A DNA stretch of 27,930 nucleotides from a virus (Duplodnaviria; Heunggongvirae; Uroviricota; Caudoviricetes): the IMG/VR virus record IMGVR_UViG_2529292904_000023; one strand, 5' to 3'. Shown here one piece after another: positions 10,954-22,978 of this stretch (position 1 is its first letter; every line of letters starts with the position of its first letter). The notes beneath the pieces are model-generated. The model saw only the letters and a list, made by a program, of their open reading frames with translations, had not been told where the DNA came from and ran no database searches. The position numbers were made by a program, and so were the translations under genes.

Positions 10954-11549
10954 ACAGTTTAACGGCAAATAACCGTTTGTCGCAACAGCTGGTGGTCAGC
11001 GTCGCTGAACACCTGTTGTTACGGCATGAATGCAGATTACCAAATCACCTGGCTGTAAGTAACCACAGAGAACTTTACCTGACTGTGGGGGGCGAGTTGT
11101 GCAGGAACTTAACCGCTGGTTTCGTGACGGAAGAGGGCTTTATGTCCATGTTATTCGTTGGGAGCCAGAAACACAGCGCGTTATCTATCTTCGCAAAGAC
11201 TACCCGCATGAGTGCTTTAGTCCTTTGTGGAAATTCAGGCGTGATTTTGTTGAGTGTGAAGGACCACCAGCATATTGATTCTGCAATTCCGGGACGTTAC
11301 ACTGCTCAGGCACCTTATAAAGCGGGTGCCGGGATTGGCGTCCTGAAATTCGCACATGCGCATAACCGCGCTTCAGCGGTTTTTTTGCGCACGTTTCCTC
11401 ACATCCAAATTATGGTGGGGCGTGCAGGGGCATCGAAAGATGCGCCGGGGTCATGTGCGACCGGTTACGCCAACCCTGTACGTCTCACCACCTCTGTGAT
11501 TGGCGTCCCATGTGGTGAGTTTTCAAAATTCGCACATGAGGATGTCACT

Positions 11550-16832: not shown

Positions 16833-17585
16833 ATGAACCTTGAAGCCTTACCGAAATATTACTCCCCGAAATCTCCAAAACTGAGCGATGACGCACCGGC
16901 GACAGGCTCTGGTGGTTTAACAATTACGGATGTGATGGCTGCGCAGGGGATGGTGCAGTCAAAAGCACCGCTTGGGTTTGCTTTATTCCTGGCAAAAGTT
17001 GGTGTTCAGGATCCTCAGTTTGCGATTGAAGGTCTGCTCAATTACGCGATGGCACTGGATAACCCGACATTGAATAAATTGAGTGAAGAAACCCGGCTAC
17101 AGATCATTCCTTACCTTGTGAATTTTGCCTTTGCTGATTATTCCAGGTCTGCGGCAAGTAAGGCTCGCTGTGAGCATTGTGCTGGTACTGGATTTCATAA
17201 TGTATTGCGCGAGGTGGTGAAACACTCCAGAAGCGGGGAATCTGTTATTAAGGAAGAGTGGGTGAAGGAACTATGTCAGCATTGTCATGGTAAGGGAGAA
17301 GTCAGCACAGCATGCAGAGGGTGCAAGGGTAAAGGTATTGTCCTGGATGAAAAAAGAACCCGGCTTCATGGCACACCTGTTTATAAGGTTTGTGGGCGTT
17401 GCAATGGAAACCGGTTTAGCAGTTTACCAACCACACTGGCGCGGCTTCATGTCCAGAAGCTGGTACCAGACCTGACGGATTATCAGTGGTACAAAGGATA
17501 TGCAGATGTCATTGATAAACTGGTTACAAAGTGCTGGCAGGAAGAAGCATATGCAGAGATACAATTGAGAAAGGTGACAAGATAA
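16833..17585 (+). CDS. Q: Late-gene antiterminator Q (phage 82 / QuuQ-like type)
   Basis: 250 aa directly upstream of the pR'/tR' candidate and the tRNA island; four Cys-x2-Cys pairs (CEHC, CQHC, CRGC, CGRC); GGAGA Shine-Dalgarno. Confidence 0.6.
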   Translation: MNLEALPKYYSPKSPKLSDDAPATGSGGLTITDVMAAQGMVQSKAPLGFALFLAKVGVQDPQFAIEGLLNYAMALDNPTLNKLSEETRLQIIPYLVNFAFADYSRSAASKARCEHCAGTGFHNVLREVVKHSRSGESVIKEEWVKELCQHCHGKGEVSTACRGCKGKGIVLDEKRTRLHGTPVYKVCGRCNGNRFSSLPTTLARLHVQKLVPDLTDYQWYKGYADVIDKLVTKCWQEEAYAEIQLRKVTR

Positions 17586-17616
17586 ATGGTTTTCGCCGAA
17601 GATGACGACATGATGC

Positions 17617-17645
17617 TTGCATTTTTCAAAAAATATGGATAAGAT
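17617..17645 (+). promoter_or_regulatory. Candidate late promoter pR' (-35 TTGCAT, 17-bp spacer, -10 TAAGAT)
   Basis: Located just 3' of Q and about 50 nt upstream of a strong terminator, as in lambdoid pR'/tR'. Confidence 0.4.
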
Positions 17646-17691
17646 TTTCCCAACGATGGGCTTTGTATGTCTACCGTTGATAAGATTTAAG

Positions 17692-17717
17692 AACCCGCCG
17701 ATGCGCGGGTTTTTTTG
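17692..17717 (+). terminator. tR'-like rho-independent terminator
   Basis: CCCGC-cgatgc-GCGGG followed by TTTTTTT. Confidence 0.65.
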
Positions 17718-17896
17718 TACCCAGAATCCTGTGAGCTATACGGAAAGTACACAGAAAGGAAGGTGCGACCACAATTAATAACAAAATCTTAAAAATTGCA
17801 CATGGCACTATTAGTTTTCTAAATATTGTGTATTTTTTGTATTGCAGGATGACCCTGTAACGAAGTTTGCGTAACAGCATTTTGCTCTACGAGTTT

Positions 17897-17926
17897 GCCA
17901 GCCTCCCCCAGTGGCTGGCTTTTTTA
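17897..17926 (+). terminator. Second rho-independent terminator
   Basis: GCCAGCC-loop-GGCTGGC followed by TTTTTTAT. Confidence 0.6.
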
Positions 17927-17948
17927 TGTCTGTAGCGTCAAAGCAGCA

Positions 17949-18047
17949 ATGTCGCTGGGGCGTCGTGCAATTGGCGTTGAGCTGGAGACTGAACGTTTTG
18001 AGCAGACGGTCAGGGAAGTTCAGGATTTAGTCAGTCAGAACGGATGA
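17949..18047 (+). pseudogene. 3'-terminal remnant of a DNA methyltransferase gene (last ~33 codons)
   Basis: Reading frame gives ...SVKAAMSLGRRAIGVELETERFEQTVREVQDLVSQNG-stop, resembling the C-terminal motif region of beta-class N6/N4 methyltransferases; upstream part replaced by the terminator. Confidence 0.4.
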
Positions 18048-18087
18048 TATTGCAGGATTAGTTACGTACCGTTATTATCCTGCGCCC

Positions 18088-18163
18088 GGCCCTTTAGCTC
18101 AGTGGTGAGAGCGAGCGACTCATAATCGCCAGGTCGCTGGTTCAAATCCAGCAAGGGCCACCA
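18088..18163 (+). tRNA. tRNA with CAU anticodon (Ile2/Met type, ileZ-like)
   Basis: Cloverleaf folded by hand: 7-bp acceptor stem, GCTC/GAGC D-stem, anticodon loop CTCATAA, T-loop TTCAAAT, encoded CCA. Confidence 0.85.
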
Positions 18164-18172
18164 TATCACATA

Positions 18173-18249
18173 CCGCCATTAGCTCATCGGGATAGAGCGT
18201 CAGCCTTCGAAGCTGGCTGTGCGGGGTTCAAGTCCCCGATGGCGGTCCA
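18173..18249 (+). tRNA. tRNA-Arg (anticodon UCG)
   Basis: Acceptor CCGCCAT/ATGGCGG, anticodon loop CTTCGAA, T-arm CGGGG-TTCAAGT-CCCCG, encoded CCA. Confidence 0.8.
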
Positions 18250-18262
18250 TTATCAGCATCAT

Positions 18263-18339
18263 GCGTTGTTAGCTCAGCCGGACAGAGCAATTGCCTTCTA
18301 AGCAATCGGTCACTGGTTCGAATCCAGTACAACGCGCCA
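18263..18339 (+). tRNA. tRNA-Arg (anticodon UCU)
   Basis: Acceptor GCGTTGT/ACAACGC, anticodon loop CTTCTAA, T-loop TTCGAAT, encoded CCA. Confidence 0.85.
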
Positions 18340-18626
18340 CACCACACTTATCTGCCCTGACTCTCTTTTGCGGGCTTTTTATTACAGGAAAGACACCGGA
18401 CAGTGAAATGTTAAATGCCTCACAATTCAGGTAGTCGACTGTTGCCTGACATGCTGAGCGTTTGTTAAAAAAATCCTGCATGATGAATCCCCCTGGGCGG
18501 CGGGGCATAATGACAGATGTTTGGTTGCGTATTGTATAGGCAAGTTGCGGATTCTGTCTGGTCATTGCAGAATTCACCGGGAGGCACCCGGCATCATGCT
18601 GTATACAGAGATTAGGCATATATCCA

Positions 18627-18652
18627 GGCTCCTCATCGCAGGAGCCTTTTTA
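18627..18652 (+). terminator. Rho-independent terminator
   Basis: GGCTCCT-catcgc-AGGAGCC followed by TTTTT. Confidence 0.6.
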
Positions 18653-18656
18653 CATG

Positions 18657-18682
18657 CAAAAAAAGCCCGAGTAGGTTCGGGC
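18657..18682 (-). terminator. Convergent minus-strand terminator
   Basis: A-run then GCCCGA-gtaggt-TCGGGC; reads as hairpin plus T-run on the minus strand. Confidence 0.5.
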
Positions 18683-18864
18683 AACAGCATGAGATACTTG
18701 CATTGTCATTTTTATCGTGTGGATTTTAACCAGGGTTTATCAGGCTGCGCAACTGCGTGGCCTTTTTTCATTTCTTGGGCTGTAGTCCCCGTGTGTCATT
18801 CAGGCTTCCGGACTACAGCCCACTCCATATCTGATTTAATACACTATCCCGGCCGGGAGGAATA

Positions 18865-20718
18865 ATGACATTTAAACATTATGATGTTGTCAGGGCGGCG
18901 TCGCCGTCAGACCTTGCGGAAAAGCTGACACACAAACTGAAAGAGGGCTGGCAGCCGTTTGGTAGTCCGGTGGCCATAACCCCTTATACCCTGATGCAGG
19001 CGATTACAGCAGAAGGTGATGTGATGGTCAGTGGTGCAACTGAGCCGGATTGGTACTACGTCATCGTACTGGCCGGGCAGTCCAATGCCATGGCTTACGG
19101 TGAAGGGCTTCCGCTTCCGGATTCATACGATGCGCCCCATCCGCGCATTAAGCAACTGGCCCGTCGTAACACAGTGACTCCCGGTGGTGAAGTATGCGTA
19201 TTTAACGACATCATTCCTGCTGACCATTGTCTGCATGATGTTCAGGATATGAGTACGATTAACCATCCCCGGGCTGACCTGAGCAAAGGGCAGTACGGCT
19301 GTGTCGGACAGGGCTTACATATTGCCAAAAAACTGCTTCCGTATATCCCTAATAATGCGGGGATCCTGCTGGTACCATGCTGTCGTGGTGGTTCGGCATT
19401 CACCCAGGGCACGGAGGGGACATTCAGCGAGTCCACGGGGGCCAGTCAGGATTCGGCTCGCTGGGGAGTGGGTAAGCCGTTATATCAGGATCTGCTTTTC
19501 CGCACGAAGGCAGCATTGCAGAAAAACCCGAAAAACGTTTTGCTGGCGATATGCTGGATGCAGGGGGAATTCGATATGACGAATGCCAGTTACGCCCAGC
19601 AGCCAGCAGCATTTCTTGCAATGGTACAGCAGTTCCGTGCTGACCTTGCCGGGCTGGCGGCGCAGTGTCACGGTGGAAGTCCGGCATCAGTCCCCTGGAT
19701 TTGTGGCGACACGACATACGCGTGGAAACAAGAACACGGTACGCAATATGAAGTGGTATATGGTGCATATAAAGGTAAAGAATCCCAGCAGATTTATTTT
19801 GTTCCCTTTATGACCGATGGTAGCGGAGTTAATACACCGACAAACAACCCGTCAGAAGATCCTGATATTGTCGGGTCTGGTTATTACGGTTCGGCATCCC
19901 GAACGAACAAAAACTGGGTATCATCAAATCGCCCGACGCATTTCAGCTCATGGGCGCGTCGTGGCATTATTCCCGATCGTATGGCAACCGCTATTCTGAA
20001 CGCAGCCGGGCGCACCTCAGCCTTCATCAGTGGTAAGGCACCGGAAATCAAACCCTCGCCCGGCGGCGACACGCCATCGGGTCCGTCTACAGATACGTCC
20101 GTTCGCACAATCTCCCTGCTGCCGACAGCCGGAGAGGCTGCTGCGCAGGGCTGGACCATTAAGGACGGCGGAATTCAGTTGTCGGGTGGTGTATTTAAGA
20201 TCGCCAAGCAGAGCAATAAAACCTGGTCCCTGACGCGCCCGGTGGATGACGCAGTCTCCCTGCTGACACGGGGTGGCAGACTGAGCTGTAAGTTTCGACT
20301 GTCAGGCGCACTGACCAACAATCAGTTCGGTCTGGGAATTTATCTGTATACCGATGTAGCGTTACCTGACGTCGTGGCGATGACGGGTACCGGTAACCCG
20401 TTCCTGATGTCGTTCTTCACCCAGACCACAGACGGCAAACTGAATCTGATGCATCACAAGAAAGCAGGAAACACAAAGTTGGGCGAGTTCGGGAATTACA
20501 GTAACGACTGGCAGACGCTGGAGCTGGTGTTCACCGCCGGCAGTGCCACGGTTACTCCGAAACTGAATGGAGTGGCTGGCCCGGCATTCCAGGTCATAAA
20601 AGACAGTCTGACACTGGGGCTGAATGCGCTGACGCTGACGGATATTACCAAAAATGCAGCGTATGGCGTTGAGATAGAAAGTCTGGTGCTGGAGATAAAT
20701 GCACCGGCATCATCATAA
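18865..20718 (+). CDS. nanS-p: NanS-p-type sialate O-acetylesterase (SGNH/DUF303 esterase with C-terminal extension)
   Basis: VIVLAGQSNAMAYGEG catalytic-serine motif; 617 aa; occupies the position downstream of the tRNA island where Stx phages carry the homolog; GGGAGGA Shine-Dalgarno. Confidence 0.8.
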   Translation: MTFKHYDVVRAASPSDLAEKLTHKLKEGWQPFGSPVAITPYTLMQAITAEGDVMVSGATEPDWYYVIVLAGQSNAMAYGEGLPLPDSYDAPHPRIKQLARRNTVTPGGEVCVFNDIIPADHCLHDVQDMSTINHPRADLSKGQYGCVGQGLHIAKKLLPYIPNNAGILLVPCCRGGSAFTQGTEGTFSESTGASQDSARWGVGKPLYQDLLFRTKAALQKNPKNVLLAICWMQGEFDMTNASYAQQPAAFLAMVQQFRADLAGLAAQCHGGSPASVPWICGDTTYAWKQEHGTQYEVVYGAYKGKESQQIYFVPFMTDGSGVNTPTNNPSEDPDIVGSGYYGSASRTNKNWVSSNRPTHFSSWARRGIIPDRMATAILNAAGRTSAFISGKAPEIKPSPGGDTPSGPSTDTSVRTISLLPTAGEAAAQGWTIKDGGIQLSGGVFKIAKQSNKTWSLTRPVDDAVSLLTRGGRLSCKFRLSGALTNNQFGLGIYLYTDVALPDVVAMTGTGNPFLMSFFTQTTDGKLNLMHHKKAGNTKLGEFGNYSNDWQTLELVFTAGSATVTPKLNGVAGPAFQVIKDSLTLGLNALTLTDITKNAAYGVEIESLVLEINAPASS

Positions 20719-20868
20719 AAAGTGAGCCAGTCAAATGGAAGGTATCGTTAAACTCACCGGTAGTGTCAGTGGGTCGTCTGAGATGCCTGCATGAGTTATC
20801 AGAGCCATCAGTACTTAACTGGTGGCTTTTTTTATTGTTGTCAGCTTCCGGATAACGGGAGACGGGGT

Positions 20869-21084
20869 ATGTACCAGATGGAAAAAATCACAACAGGTGT
20901 GTCATACACCACGTCAGCGGTGGGAACGGGCTACTGGTTCCTGCAGTTGCTGGACAGGGTTTCCCCGTCTCAGTGGGCGGCAATAGGCGTGCTGGGAAGT
21001 CTGCTGTTTGGGCTGCTGACATATCTGACTAACCTGTATTTCAAAATCAGAGAGGACCGGCGTAAGGCCGCCCGGGGAGAGTGA
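20869..21084 (+). CDS. S: Phage-21-type class II holin (pinholin) with a dual start
   Basis: 71 aa, MYQMEKITT... with Met1/Met4 dual-start motif; two TM segments; C-terminal [14 protein letters not shown]; GGGAGA Shine-Dalgarno. Confidence 0.85.
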
Positions 21085-21087
21085 ATA

Positions 21088-21645
21088 ATGAACCATGAAG
21101 AAATGAATCAGCGCTTCAGTCGCCTGGAAAATGAAATTGCTGAACTGAATAAAAAACTGTCGACGCTGATGCATTCTGAAGATGAAAAAAAACGCCGCGA
21201 TGAGCAGTTTGCTGCGTTTGACGATTATTGTCGGAAAGTGATGAGCAAAAATCTCGCAGAGTGTTTCAGTATTCATAATGATAATTTCAGTGAGCTGGAA
21301 TGGGAGTGTAACCGGCCATCCTTTGTTGTATCCGGTGATGCCGGGAAAATAACCATCTCAGAAAATGGGAAAGTAACACCTCCATCGCACCAGCACAGTG
21401 AGGAGCTCATTGAATTTGCCATTGATTACCTGAAGAACAATAAAAAGCAGGGGCTGATGAAGCGCGTTGGCCGTTGCATGGGATATCTTCAGGTAGCCGC
21501 TGAGATTGAAGCGCTGGCCAGTGGTGCTGATAAGGATGCAATTGTGCGGGAGGCTCTTCTTCGTGATTTTAATACTCCACCCTTTAAAAAAGTGCCGGCT
21601 TACTGGCTTCATCCGGGGCTGACTTATCTTAAAGTGCGTATTTAG
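21088..21645 (+). CDS. Hypothetical 185-aa protein inserted between holin and endolysin
   Basis: ORF 3 nt after the holin stop; N-terminal heptad-like segment (LENEIAELNKKLSTL); no TM segment or recognised motif. Confidence 0.5.
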   Translation: MNHEEMNQRFSRLENEIAELNKKLSTLMHSEDEKKRRDEQFAAFDDYCRKVMSKNLAECFSIHNDNFSELEWECNRPSFVVSGDAGKITISENGKVTPPSHQHSEELIEFAIDYLKNNKKQGLMKRVGRCMGYLQVAAEIEALASGADKDAIVREALLRDFNTPPFKKVPAYWLHPGLTYLKVRI

Positions 21646-21681
21646 TGGGCCAGGGACAGCGGCTGAATATTTAATATATCC

Positions 21682-22215
21682 ATGAACACCAAAATCAAAT
21701 ACGGCCTGTCGGCTGCCGTTCTGGCGCTGATTGCCGCTGGTGCGTCTGCGCCTGACATTCTCGACCAGTTTCTGGATGAAAAGGAAGGCAATCACACCAC
21801 GGCATACCGTGATGGTGCAGGTATCTGGACCATCTGCCGTGGTGCCATCATGGTGGATGGCAAACCTGTCGTTCCGGGCATGAAGTTGTCGAAGGAAAAA
21901 TGCGACCAGGTTAACGCCATTGAGCGTGATAAAGCGCTGGCGTGGGTGGAGAAAAACATCAAAGTGCCATTGAGCGAACCCCAGAAAGCGGGGATCGCGT
22001 CATTCTGTCCGTACAACATTGGTCCCGGTAAGTGTTTCCCGTCGACGTTTTATAAACGAATTAATGCAGGTGATCGCAGGGGAGCGTGTGAGGCGATTCG
22101 CTGGTGGATTAAGGACGGTGGCAGAGACTGCCGTATTCGTTCAAACAACTGCTACGGTCAGGTATCCCGTCGTGACCAGGAGAGCGCGCTGGCGTGCTGG
22201 GGTATCGACAGATAA
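21682..22215 (+). CDS. R: SAR endolysin (T4-lysozyme-like)
   Basis: Weakly hydrophobic Gly/Ala-rich N-terminus (GLSAAVLALIAAGASA); catalytic E-x8-D-x5-T pattern (EGNHTTAYRDGAGIWTICRG). Confidence 0.8.
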   Translation: MNTKIKYGLSAAVLALIAAGASAPDILDQFLDEKEGNHTTAYRDGAGIWTICRGAIMVDGKPVVPGMKLSKEKCDQVNAIERDKALAWVEKNIKVPLSEPQKAGIASFCPYNIGPGKCFPSTFYKRINAGDRRGACEAIRWWIKDGGRDCRIRSNNCYGQVSRRDQESALACWGIDR

Positions 22216-22329
22216 GCAGAATATTTTGCTGAAAAATAAAGCATGGCCACGCGGGCGGATAACATGAAATCCTGCGAACTGGCGAAACGTAAGTGAATAA
22301 AAGTAAAAACCCCGTTTGTTGGCACCAAG

Positions 22330-22364
22330 CGGGGTTTTGTGTTTCCTGACTCCGGAAAAGTCAA
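22330..22364 (+). terminator. Rho-independent terminator between R and Rz
   Basis: 9-bp stem (CCCCGTTTG / CAAGCGGGG, one G-U pair) followed by TTTTGTGTTT. Confidence 0.6.
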
Positions 22365-22374
22365 AGGAGAAAGT

Positions 22375-22512
22375 GTGTTTGATTTTAGCAAACTGATTCG
22401 GGAGATTCGAGTGATGGCTGAAAAATTATCCACCTGGAAGTTCATTCTTATCTGGCTGGTGTTTGTGATTATGGCCTCCGGTTATTTCATCGGTCAGATA
22501 CGCTGGTGGTGA
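22375..22512 (+). CDS. Candidate micro-ORF, 45 aa (32 aa from the internal ATG at 22414), single hydrophobic segment
   Basis: Not in the track; AAAGGAGAAA Shine-Dalgarno before GTG 22375; hydrophobic core [20 protein letters not shown]; stop 1 nt before the Rz start. Confidence 0.3.
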
Positions 22513-22513
22513 A

Positions 22514-22978
22514 ATGAACCGCGTACTGTGCGTGGTCATCATTGCCCTGCTGGTGGCCTGTGGTGCGCTTAGTCTGGGGCTGAATCATTACCGTGATAAC
22601 GCCATTACCTACAAAGCCCAGCGCGACAAAAATGTCAGAGAACTGAAGCTGGCGAACGCGGCAATTACTGACATGCAGATGCGTCAGCGTGATGTTGCTG
22701 CGCTCGATGCAAAATACACGAAGGAGTTAGCTGATGCGAAAGCTGAAAATGATGCTCTGCGTGATGATGTTGCCGCTGGTCGTCGTCGGTTGCACATCAA
22801 AGCAGTCTGTCAGTCAGTGCGTGAAGCCACCACCGCCTCCGGCGTGGATAATGCAGCCTCCCCCCGACTGGCAGACACCGCTGAACGGGATTATTTCACC
22901 CTCAGAGCGCGACTGATAATAATGCAAAAACAACTTGAAGGGGCACAGCTATACATTCGAGAGCAATGCCTCAGATAA
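22514..22978 (+). CDS. Rz: Rz i-spanin
   Basis: N-terminal TM anchor, coiled-coil periplasmic domain, 154 aa, Rz1 embedded in the +1 frame. Confidence 0.8.
22734..22916 (+). CDS. Rz1: Rz1 o-spanin lipoprotein
   Basis: Lipobox LVVVGC, proline-rich (PPPPP), 60 aa, fully embedded in Rz. Confidence 0.75.

Follow-up and report, generated by a model that had tools for sequence, protein, structure and literature searches.

In the Stx2a phage 933W, the toxin genes lie between a tRNA array and the esterase gene nanS-p. A viral DNA of 27,930 nucleotides (IMG/VR record IMGVR_UViG_2529292904_000023; the whole stretch is referred to as the window) carries a similar array and a nanS-p-type gene, separated by about 525 nt. 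This raises the questions of what occupies the gap and whether a toxin was lost from it. Very probably, the locus (window 16.8-23 kb) is where a stx-negative lambdoid prophage controls its late genes through Q, and its polymorphic "moron" site has an allele without cargo. The window is an E. coli prophage of ordinary type, built like a Shiga-toxin phage minus the toxin genes. The features of the region are collected in Table 1.

Table 1. Features of the late control region, in window coordinates.
Feature	Position	Strand	Basis or remark
Antiterminator Q gene	16833..17585	+	Phage-82/21-type, unlike 933W Q type; Pfam PF03589 Antiterm, 175 bits
pR'-to-tR' leader, StxS sRNA homologue	17668..17925	+	Ends in tR' terminator 17897-17925
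DNA methylase gene, C-terminal remnant (pseudogene)	17934..18047	+	RefSeq annotation in L002, L005
Putative tRNA promoter pT	18050..18078	+	TTGCAG, 17-nt spacer, TATTAT
tRNA, anticodon CAU, ileZ-type (tRNA-Ile2 after lysidine modification)	18088-18163	+	ARAGORN; Rfam 72.5 bits
tRNA-Arg (UCG), argN-type	18173-18249	+	ARAGORN; Rfam 55.9 bits
tRNA-Arg (UCU), argO-type	18263-18339	+	ARAGORN; Rfam 70.1 bits
Decayed terminator 3' of argO, left border of cargo slot	18349..18380	+	Homologous to 933W 'terminator upstream of the stx genes'
Linker TACAGGAAAGACACCGGACAGTG, 23-24 nt	18375..18398	+	In place of stx2 cassette; alignments A1-A3
STnc100-family sRNA gene, homologue of EcOnc27/EcOnc28 (O157 Sakai)	18449..18657	+	Rfam RF02076; ends in terminator 18626-18647
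Anti-sRNA, AgvB/AsxR family, EcOnc03 type	18658..18717	-	Terminator 18682-18665; Rfam AgvB, AsxR
Third intrinsic terminator	18742..18770 (scan 18742-18763)	+	Terminator scan
Conserved 12-13-bp hairpin directly 5' of nanS-p ribosome-binding site	18776..18822	+	Folding, conservation
nanS-p-type sialate O-acetylesterase gene	18865..20718	+	Pfam DUF1737, SASA, DUF6645
Lysis cassette	20869..22978	+	Pfam PF04971, PF00959, PF03245
P21-type holin	20869-21084	+	Pfam, lysis cassette
orf185	21088-21645	+	PHROG 1085, function unknown
Lysozyme	21682-22215	+	Pfam, lysis cassette
Rz	22514-22978	+	Pfam, lysis cassette

Late control region and tRNA array

Starting at base 56-59, the window can be aligned with prophages of CD45, 493/89, and O145:H28 whose neighbors are zur, a DUF2713 gene, and a dusA fragment. 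This homology to prophages beside zur and the dusA fragment suggests integration at dusA. Coverage of the window stays below 80% in every complete E. coli genome of the collection, the best reaching 75% at 95.5% identity, and the exact mosaic thus appears to be without counterpart there. Pfam domains and alignment to 933W and to the Stx1a phage Lys8385Vzw reveal a lambdoid late architecture composed of Q, pR'/tR', nanS-p, and a holin-lysozyme-Rz set. The ileZ-argN-argO array lies between tR' and nanS-p, and argO is joined straight to the sRNA/nanS-p segment. An earlier note on this DNA had read the same order from the letters, and its reading stands: ARAGORN finds exactly the three tRNAs it named (CAU, Arg-UCG, and Arg-UCU), all on the plus strand, and the Pfam domains place Q before them and nanS-p and then the lysis genes after them. 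RefSeq names the nanS-p homologues 'SASA family carbohydrate esterase'.

The start of Q was chosen from a 753-nt RefSeq homologue in L002. The gene is 99.2-99.6% identical to Q of Lys8385Vzw. The leader that follows corresponds to StxS, a name given to the pR'-tR' transcript of 258 nt and to the 74-nt product from its 3' part (PMC7547250). It is identical to Lys8385Vzw at 258 of 258 positions, and its last 74 nt match 933W at 74/74. An upstream terminator lies within the leader at about 17694-17716, and the 933W record annotates terminators at positions equivalent to those of the leader. The 5' end of the leader is placed by spacing, and pR' is placed only relative to tR'.

The methylase remnant is annotated by RefSeq at the equivalent position in L002 and L005 as 'DNA methylase, incomplete, missing N-terminus'. 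The ORF and tRNA lists contain an intact 352-aa ORF at this position in the Stx2c phage L003. L006 carries a full-length (1059-nt) copy with an internal stop, annotated as a pseudogene.

The putative promoter pT is identical to a 933W stretch annotated 'pT; putative tRNA promoter', and a transcription start driving the tRNAs has been mapped between tR' and stx2AB in Sakai (PMC7547250). The Rfam scores of the three tRNAs compare with a gathering score of 29 for the tRNA model. The CAU tRNA is assigned as tRNA-Ile by RefSeq in near-identical prophages and has the same sequence as ileZ of 933W. The earlier note also proposed that the tRNAs supply rare-codon decoding. Such a role is plausible, but would be weaker in the absence of stx, as the codons AUA, AGA, and AGG occur at 6.7, 8.6, and 2.4 per 1000 codons in the Q-to-lysis genes of the window versus 36.7, 14.7, and 4.9 in stx2AB.

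The terminator after argO has a folding energy of -6.0 kcal/mol, compared with -14.8 in 933W and -12.1 in the phage vB_EcoP_phi296 (phi296), and folds no better than shuffled sequences (z=+0.48). A moron, as reportedly defined by Juhala et al. in 2000, is an autonomous promoter-gene-terminator unit in a late operon. The tRNA block has the pT sequence on one side but a decayed terminator on the other, and thus may not be such a self-contained unit.

RNA genes between argO and nanS-p

The earlier note described the gap (18340-18864) as containing only convergent terminators and a hairpin. These elements are real, and the terminator scan confirms the convergent pair at 18626-18647 on the plus strand and 18682-18665 on the minus strand, but two sRNA genes were overlooked. 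As judged by homology, the gap harbors a convergent pair of genes for known small regulatory RNAs, which the two terminators close, and so cannot be called empty.

The plus-strand gene matches the STnc100 model full-length (positions 1-206 of 206) with 175.6 bits against a gathering score of 47, and its 5' end probably lies upstream of the matched segment, around 18420-18435. The family is found at the equivalent position in 933W, Lys8385Vzw, CD45, and phi296, with the 933W copy matching the EcOnc27 probe from the literature. Hfq crosslinking had recovered both EcOnc27 and EcOnc28, and EcOnc27 gave Northern bands of ~235/247 nt (PMC4104026).

The minus-strand gene, convergent with the STnc100-family gene as in the EcOnc03 type, agrees with EcOnc03 (Fig. 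S4, PMC4104026) in 50/51 bases. The match includes the 5' variable region, and the sole difference lies in the terminator loop. The same variant is also located downstream of stx1 in Lys8385Vzw. The 5' region of the RNA reads CGAUAAAAAUGACAAUGCAAG, and the fold consists of a 5' single strand and a terminator (z=-2.4). The score to the Rfam AgvB model (RF02702) is 56.2 bits, only 0.2 bits above the gathering score of 56, while the true AgvB of CD45 reaches 96.5 bits. The score to the AsxR model (RF02703), 44 bits, falls short of the gathering score of 63. The 5' variable region lacks the CACAACA GcvB-R1 target motif. The predicted duplex with GcvB has an energy of -11.5 kcal/mol (z=-0.05 against shuffled seeds), compared with -19.5 kcal/mol (z=-2.1) for the AgvB control. 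With an at-threshold Rfam score, no CACAACA, and GcvB pairing at shuffle level, the assignment as AgvB was rejected in favor of EcOnc03. MicC was also rejected as a seed partner of EcOnc03 (-10.5 kcal/mol, z=-0.5), and target prediction gave no candidate among the six host sRNAs screened, with McaS, FnrS, OmrA, and OmrB unremarkable. PMC4104026, the sole paper mentioning EcOnc03 in the literature searched, describes neither its function nor its target.

The third terminator is conserved in 12/12 allele types (6 pairs) and is likely to overlap, on the other strand, the predicted -35 region of the anti-sRNA promoter. Together with the hairpin next to it, it has a minimum free energy of -42.9 kcal/mol (z=-6.8). 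The hairpin stem is maintained in divergent alleles, with compensatory changes in 4/20 pairs. Convergent sRNA pairs between a moron coding sequence and a conserved ORF are present in Sakai prophages Sp3, 4, 5, 9, 10, 11, 15, and 17 (PMC4104026).

The gap could alternatively encode protein, with a 114-aa ORF (18521-18865, plus strand) or a 116-aa ORF (18269-18619, minus strand) being a real small phage gene. Both ORFs match short PHROG families of unknown function, and a 'hypothetical protein' is listed at this site in some phage records. However, neither has a Pfam match. The plus-strand ORF has a TTG start and crosses three terminators and the anti-sRNA gene, and the minus-strand ORF overlaps the argO tRNA. 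The matching PHROGs are profiles of 39-83 aa that may reflect over-calling of the same non-coding DNA. The strength of the match to a structured-RNA model and the Hfq-bound sRNAs mapped at homologous Sakai loci also speak against coding. A protein-coding gap is thus very improbable, and the two ORFs were discarded as probable over-annotations. The STnc100-family sRNA and the EcOnc03-type anti-sRNA should be annotated here, rather than a blank or hypothetical ORFs.

Characterized homologues, from which promoters and transcript ends are also extrapolated, suggest how the region may work. In a lysogen, transcripts from pR' would halt at tR' and yield an exact copy of the StxS leader RNA, while the tRNAs and the two sRNAs would be transcribed from their own promoters. 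The stacked terminators would shield nanS-p and the lysis genes from this transcription. Upon induction, Q would allow RNA polymerase to read through all terminators into nanS-p, the lysis genes, and the structural genes. [quoted passage not shown]

The cargo slot without toxin

A tblastn search of the whole window with Stx1A, Stx1B, Stx2A, and Stx2B gave a best E-value of 0.038 and no match inside 18340-18864. Blastn-short comparison of the stx1 and stx2 cassettes with the window gave only chance-level matches of 11-15 nt. The window thus does not carry stxA and stxB downstream of Q/pR', the mark of a Shiga-toxin-converting phage. As the earlier note had stated, the gap contains no stxA/stxB-like ORF, and the remnant search it had called for yielded nothing above chance. 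The alignment it had also called for succeeded: the window is 94% identical to 933W over 17691-18380 (690 nt), downstream of pR' through tR', the methylase remnant, pT, and ileZ-argN-argO. From about 18400 (18406-18420) into nanS-p, the window is again homologous to 933W and to Stx1a phages. Its view of a stx-negative relative is supported, since the stx cassette is precisely the missing part and has left no remnant; neither toxin remnants nor a failure to align, which it had named as grounds for abandoning that view, was found.

Where the window has a 23-nt linker, 933W carries a stx2 cassette of ~1.34 kb. The earlier note had suggested that the junction be compared for a scar of insertion or deletion. 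Alignments A1-A3 display no scar and no flanking direct repeat, but a clean swap of the cassette for the conserved linker. The linker is 96% identical in the stx-negative phages phi296, PPwrbA_EH2201, TL-2011a, and Lahn2; among GTDB species representatives, it occurs only in one Escherichia sp. contig. Of 5,426 complete E. coli genomes, 490 (about 9%) have the toxin-less junction of 181 nt as one contiguous stretch, compared with 592 that have the argO-to-stx2A junction; isolated Traversvirus and Oslovirus phages that are stx-negative share the toxin-less one. The 1.6-kb arrangement of the window is present in 118 complete E. coli genomes.

The slot is bounded by the argO terminator on its left and by the promoter region of the STnc100-family gene on its right. 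It contains the stx2 promoter and stx2AB in 933W, and TerB/DUF3927 genes, a methyltransferase-like gene, or a second STnc100 copy in other prophages. CD45, the closest whole-prophage relative, has a TerB/DUF3927 cassette there. Among 68 nanS-p upstream regions with argO upstream, the slot is empty in 28, contains an extra ~240-490 nt in 18, holds TerB or other cargo in 9, and holds stx2 in 13. The single representative of the ~240-490-nt class that was looked at has a second STnc100 copy.

The toxin may have been lost or may never have been acquired, although its deletion in recent times is unlikely. In such a scenario, a precise internal deletion would have removed the stx2 promoter and stx2AB from a Stx2-converting ancestor in this lineage. 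It would account for the Stx2-phage chassis, which extends to details such as the methylase remnant, pT, and three tRNAs, and for the exact copy of the StxS leader; the Pas-sRNA preprint also offers repeated stx loss as one explanation of stx-less esterase-holin regions. However, nothing remains of a stx promoter, coding part, or 3' flank, and the slot has at least four other states. Moreover, the linker and junction are 96-100% conserved in the 490 genomes, at various chromosomal sites and in unrelated phage backbones, which marks the allele as an old one that is spread by recombination. Since the junction is an allele shared this widely, also by several isolated phages, it is not a private deletion, and recent loss in this lineage is improbable. 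An ancient deletion may conceivably have given rise to the cargo-less allele. Least probable of all is an assembly artefact, in which a chimeric join of paralogous prophages would have dropped the stx cassette. The many near-identical late regions of STEC genomes do confound assemblers (PMC8065619), and no complete genome matches the whole window, but the identical junction recurs in hundreds of closed genomes and in isolated phages, and the flanks are continuous at 99% identity with closed O157, O145, and O26 chromosomes over 1.6 kb.

The locus is thus best labeled a stx-negative lambdoid prophage late region. More tentatively, the cargo-less allele may be the ancestral chassis, with the tRNA array, the STnc100/anti-sRNA pair, and nanS-p as a conserved unit, and with stx2, TerB-type, and other cargos having entered a single hotspot, flanked by the argO terminator and the sRNA promoter, in separate insertions. 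The same tentative proposal takes the EcOnc03-type anti-sRNA, as a sponge for a host sRNA, and the hairpin, as a control of the esterase in lysogens, to be uncharacterized regulators. Because the flanks on either side of the toxin slot are up to 100% identical to Stx phages, such backbones are ready recombination partners for them.

Comparison with known phages and sRNAs

The toxin-less, Stx-phage-like arrangement is common and already known, and its significance as a discovery is small. Earlier work on EHEC genomes described lambdoid prophages without Stx whose late regions resemble those of Stx phages and which carry nanS-p genes and, at the moron site of pR', convergent pairs of sRNAs (PMC4104026, PMC8065619, and PMC10462455), and the latter two papers report nanS-p in non-Stx prophages.

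The order in 933W (Stx2a, Traversvirus) is Q-pR'-tR'-ileZ-argN-argO-stx2AB-AsxR/EcOnc27-nanS-p-S-R-Rz. Besides the segment around the tRNAs, the window shares with 933W the STnc100-family sRNA and convergent anti-sRNA, third terminator, hairpin, nanS-p, and P21-type holin in equal order. It differs in lacking the stx2 promoter and stx2AB, in its Q (PF03589 family in the window, a short protein of another family in 933W), in its anti-sRNA (EcOnc03-type rather than AsxR), and in nanS-p, which is only about 69-78% identical. The remainder of the window resembles a siphovirus-type dusA prophage, not a podovirus. Lys8385Vzw is 99.2-99.7% identical to the window up to 17934.

The dusA-site prophages of O157:H- 493/89, O145:H28, and O26:H11, together with non-Stx lambdoid prophages of EHEC (Sakai Sp-series type), share the methylase remnant, tRNA-Ile, two tRNA-Arg, and SASA esterase, without stx. 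These prophages show 99.0-99.1% identity over 17600-19187, with an identical gap region. Their nanS-p and lysis genes diverge, with 92.7% overall identity over 17600-20730 and another holin-lysozyme set.

The stx-negative Sepvirinae phages phi296 (Traversvirus tv86) and PPwrbA_EH2201 (Oslovirus) have the tRNA array, the cargo-less junction and linker, and then a STnc100-family sRNA, the hairpin, and NanS. The phi296 record annotates a methyltransferase fragment, three tRNAs, NanS, and a holin. Both phages differ from the window in having a 933W-type Q, an intact argO terminator, another minus-strand module in place of the anti-sRNA, and another nanS-p allele.

The anti-sRNA has a 5' variable region without the GcvB-target motif of AgvB and unlike that of AsxR. 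It resembles AgvB, AsxR, and EcOnc03, as described together with their convergent partners (Tree et al. 2014, PMC4104026; RF02702, RF02703, and RF02076), in its site between the moron slot and a conserved esterase ORF, its convergent layout, and its conserved 3' body of ~42 nt and terminator.

The late region and the missing toxin genes

The window possesses the late gene order proposed in the earlier note: an antiterminator Q gene, three tRNAs, nanS-p, and the lysis genes. ARAGORN and Rfam identify the tRNAs, and domain matches identify the flanking genes. The CAU tRNA is labeled tRNA-Ile by RefSeq in near-identical prophages and named ileZ in the stx2 phage 933W. The 617-residue ORF is of the nanS-p type, as judged from its three domains, and is followed by a P21-type holin, a 185-residue ORF of no known function, lysozyme, and Rz.

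Features of the window, with strand and supporting evidence
Feature	Position	Strand	Evidence or location
isrK RNA	11310-11386	+	Rfam, gathering level, 62.3 bits
C4 antisense RNA	11408-11495	+	Rfam, gathering level, 75.1 bits
Antiterminator Q gene	16833-17585		PF03589; upstream of tRNAs
tRNA, anticodon CAU	18088-18163	+	ARAGORN; Rfam 72.5 bits
tRNA Arg-UCG	18173-18249	+	ARAGORN; Rfam 55.9 bits
tRNA Arg-UCU	18263-18339	+	ARAGORN; Rfam 70.1 bits
STnc100-family sRNA, full length	18449-18657	+	Rfam 175.6 bits (gathering 47)
Terminator of STnc100-family gene	18626-18647	+
AgvB-family RNA	18658-18717	-	Rfam 56.2 bits (gathering 56)
Terminator of minus-strand RNA gene	18682-18665	-
Third terminator	18742-18763	+	before nanS-p ribosome-binding site
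Hairpin, 12-13 bp	18776-18822	+	immediately upstream of nanS-p ribosome-binding site
nanS-p-type ORF, 617 aa	18865-20718		DUF1737, SASA, DUF6645; downstream of tRNAs
Intrinsic terminator	20801-20829	+	12-pair stem and T-run
185-aa ORF	21088-21645	+	PHROG 1085 (unknown function)

No toxin gene is found. In tblastn searches of the whole window with Stx1A, Stx1B, Stx2A, and Stx2B from Lys8385Vzw (a Stx1a phage) and 933W, the best match has E=0.038 and none lies in 18340-18864, in line with the absence of a stxA/stxB-like ORF claimed for this gap. Both stx cassettes give only chance 11-15-mers by blastn-short. Because stx genes define a Stx phage and are absent here, the locus falls outside that definition.

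The layout nevertheless aligns to 933W-type phages, as the earlier note had anticipated. Identity to 933W is 94% over 17691-18380, which spans the first terminator after pR', tR', a methylase-gene remnant, the annotated tRNA promoter pT, and ileZ-argN-argO. Beyond the argO-proximal terminator, 933W contains about 1.34 kb comprising the stx2 promoter, stx2A, stx2B, and a short 3' flank, whereas the window contains only TACAGGAAAGACACCGGACAGTG (about 18375-18398). Lys8385Vzw is 99.2-99.7% identical to the window up to 17934, but lacks the tRNAs and carries stx1AB directly after tR'. In a three-way alignment, homology resumes at AAATGTTAAAT...CACAATTCAG. A short linker stands in place of the stx2 segment, and the junction shows no direct repeat or other scar of the kind the note had suggested looking for. 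The window's copy of the terminator that follows argO has decayed (-6.0 kcal/mol, z=+0.48, versus -14.8 kcal/mol in 933W).

Several other features accompany this region. The 185-residue ORF lacks a Pfam domain, and may be truncated since its PHROG match covers only profile positions 117-296 of 296; in relatives, this place in the holin-lysozyme interval is taken by a YdfR-family gene. The strong terminator that separates the nanS-p stop (20718) from the holin start (20869) occupies the esterase-holin position to which a recent preprint on Pas sRNAs assigns PasA and PasC, and may be another sRNA 3' end. In the early region, the isrK/C4 pair resembles an immunity module of the P1/P7 c4/antirepressor type; the prophage of E. 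coli CD45 has the pair too (L005 15785-15973), a short distance ahead of a gene for a Rha-family regulator. Judged by alignment to CD45 and 493/89, positions 1 to ~1450 at the left end comprise host DNA with a DUF2713 gene and, after it, a 5' fragment of dusA, which puts the prophage at the dusA integration site.

Small RNAs and transcription

The gap had been described as holding only convergent terminators and a hairpin. These elements are real, but the convergent terminators end two sRNA genes with Rfam matches. By sequence, the two are predicted members of STnc100 (RF02076) and of the AgvB/AsxR anti-sRNA family, the latter as an EcOnc03 variant. The EcOnc27 Northern probe of Tree et al. 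2014 (PMC4104026) matches the STnc100 homologue of 933W, which makes the plus-strand gene the EcOnc27/28 homologue. The minus-strand RNA, CGAUAAAAAUGACAAUGCAAGUAUCUCAUGCUGUUGCCCGAACCUACUCGGGCUUUUUUU, is identical to published EcOnc03 (Fig. S4 of the same study) at 50 of 51 bases and reaches 44 bits with the AsxR model (gathering 63). It is not AgvB proper: the CACAACA motif is absent, and predicted GcvB pairing has z=-0.05 versus -2.1 for an AgvB control.

The counterpart pair is STnc100 with AsxR in 933W, with the EcOnc03 type in Lys8385Vzw, and with true AgvB (96.5 bits) in CD45; the stx-negative phage phi296 retains STnc100, but its minus-strand module is unrelated. Compared with L005 24419-24440 and two further loci (L004 5016-5037, L008 ~3810-3870), the variable 5' seed (18696-18717, minus strand) behaves like an exchangeable cassette, the sequence on either side being otherwise the same; 493/89 shares the EcOnc03 seed.

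The third terminator and the hairpin fold jointly (-42.9 kcal/mol, z=-6.8). Across divergent alleles the hairpin has no fewer than four stem sequences and still pairs, with compensatory changes at 4 of 20 pairs.

The 258-nt segment that ends with tR' (17668-17925) matches Lys8385Vzw at every base (258/258), and its final 74 nt likewise match 933W (74/74). In Stx phages, this constitutive pR'-tR' transcript, StxS, stops at tR', is processed to a 74-nt Hfq-binding sRNA, and represses stx1B translation (PMC7547250). Given this identity, the toxin-less prophage should still make StxS. The pT sequence is the same as in 933W, and a transcription start has been mapped at this position in strain Sakai (PMC7547250). 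Judging from homologues, each gap sRNA gene would have a promoter of its own, the series of terminators would bar lysogenic transcription from nanS-p and the lysis genes, and Q-modified polymerase would pass them upon induction.

The rare-codon supply suggested for the tRNAs is a plausible role, though a modest one. Per 1000 codons, eight Q-to-Rz genes contain 6.7 AUA, 8.6 AGA, and 2.4 AGG, compared with 2.0, 0, and 1.0 in five flanking host genes and 36.7, 14.7, and 4.9 in stx2AB, all small samples.

Cargo slot and origin of the toxin-less allele

The slot between the argO terminator and the STnc100-family gene is polymorphic. Of 129 sequences lying upstream of nanS-p, drawn from the window, comparison loci, and 120 IMG/VR contigs, 68 have argO upstream and were classified by argO-to-third-terminator distance. 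The slot is empty in 28 (362-439 nt) and holds stx2 in 13 (about 1.70-1.73 kb). For the 18 regions of 652-854 nt, the single 854-nt representative run through Rfam (L013) contains a second STnc100-family copy in tandem (the two at 811-1001 and 1279-1488), a doubling that occurs in some IMG/VR contigs. Of two representatives inspected among four regions of 1.06-1.14 kb, one (L034) carries a TerB-family gene and the other (L017) shows no intact TerB ORF. Five regions of about 1.6-1.9 kb hold other non-stx cargo: TerB accompanied by two small ORFs and a DUF3927-like membrane peptide, and a 311-residue methyltransferase-like ORF. CD45, the closest whole-prophage relative (75% coverage, 95.5% identity), fills the slot with a TerB/DUF3927 cassette and, starting at the anti-sRNA promoter, has the same sequence as the window. 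The Stx2c phage L003 and the O157:H7 prophage L006 lack argN and have a full-length methylase gene in place of the remnant; in L006 this gene is annotated as a pseudogene with an internal stop.

The toxin-less junction is common. At least 80% of the 1.6-kb region 17600-19200 is covered in 118 complete E. coli genomes, with the best matches (99.0-99.1%) in O157:H- 493/89, O145:H28, and O26:H11 strains. Of 5,426 complete E. coli genomes, 490 have the 181-nt junction (18300-18480) unbroken, with identity reaching 100% and with differing chromosomal locations, and 592 have the argO-to-stx2A junction of 933W. The linker recurs, 96% identical, in the phage records vB_EcoP_phi296, PPwrbA_EH2201 (Oslovirus), TL-2011a, and Lahn2.

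The empty slot could reflect either loss of stx or a backbone that never gained it. A recent private deletion of stx is argued against by the lack of any stx promoter or 3'-flank remnant, by conservation of the linker in unrelated backbones and many genomes, and by the several alternative cargos at the same site. An ancient deletion is a possible origin of the empty allele, and a recent preprint on Pas sRNAs names repeated stx loss as one way in which stx-less esterase-holin regions might have arisen.

The earlier reading of a stx-negative relative holds: the locus displays every tested feature of stx-negative lambdoid prophages whose late chassis is of the Stx2 type, a known class. The phi296 record (Traversvirus tv86) is annotated with a methyltransferase fragment, three tRNAs, NanS, and holin, and no stx, and nanS-p is documented in non-Stx prophages (PMC8065619, PMC10462455). 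The toxin-less late region is correctly recognized, yet ordinary and already described.
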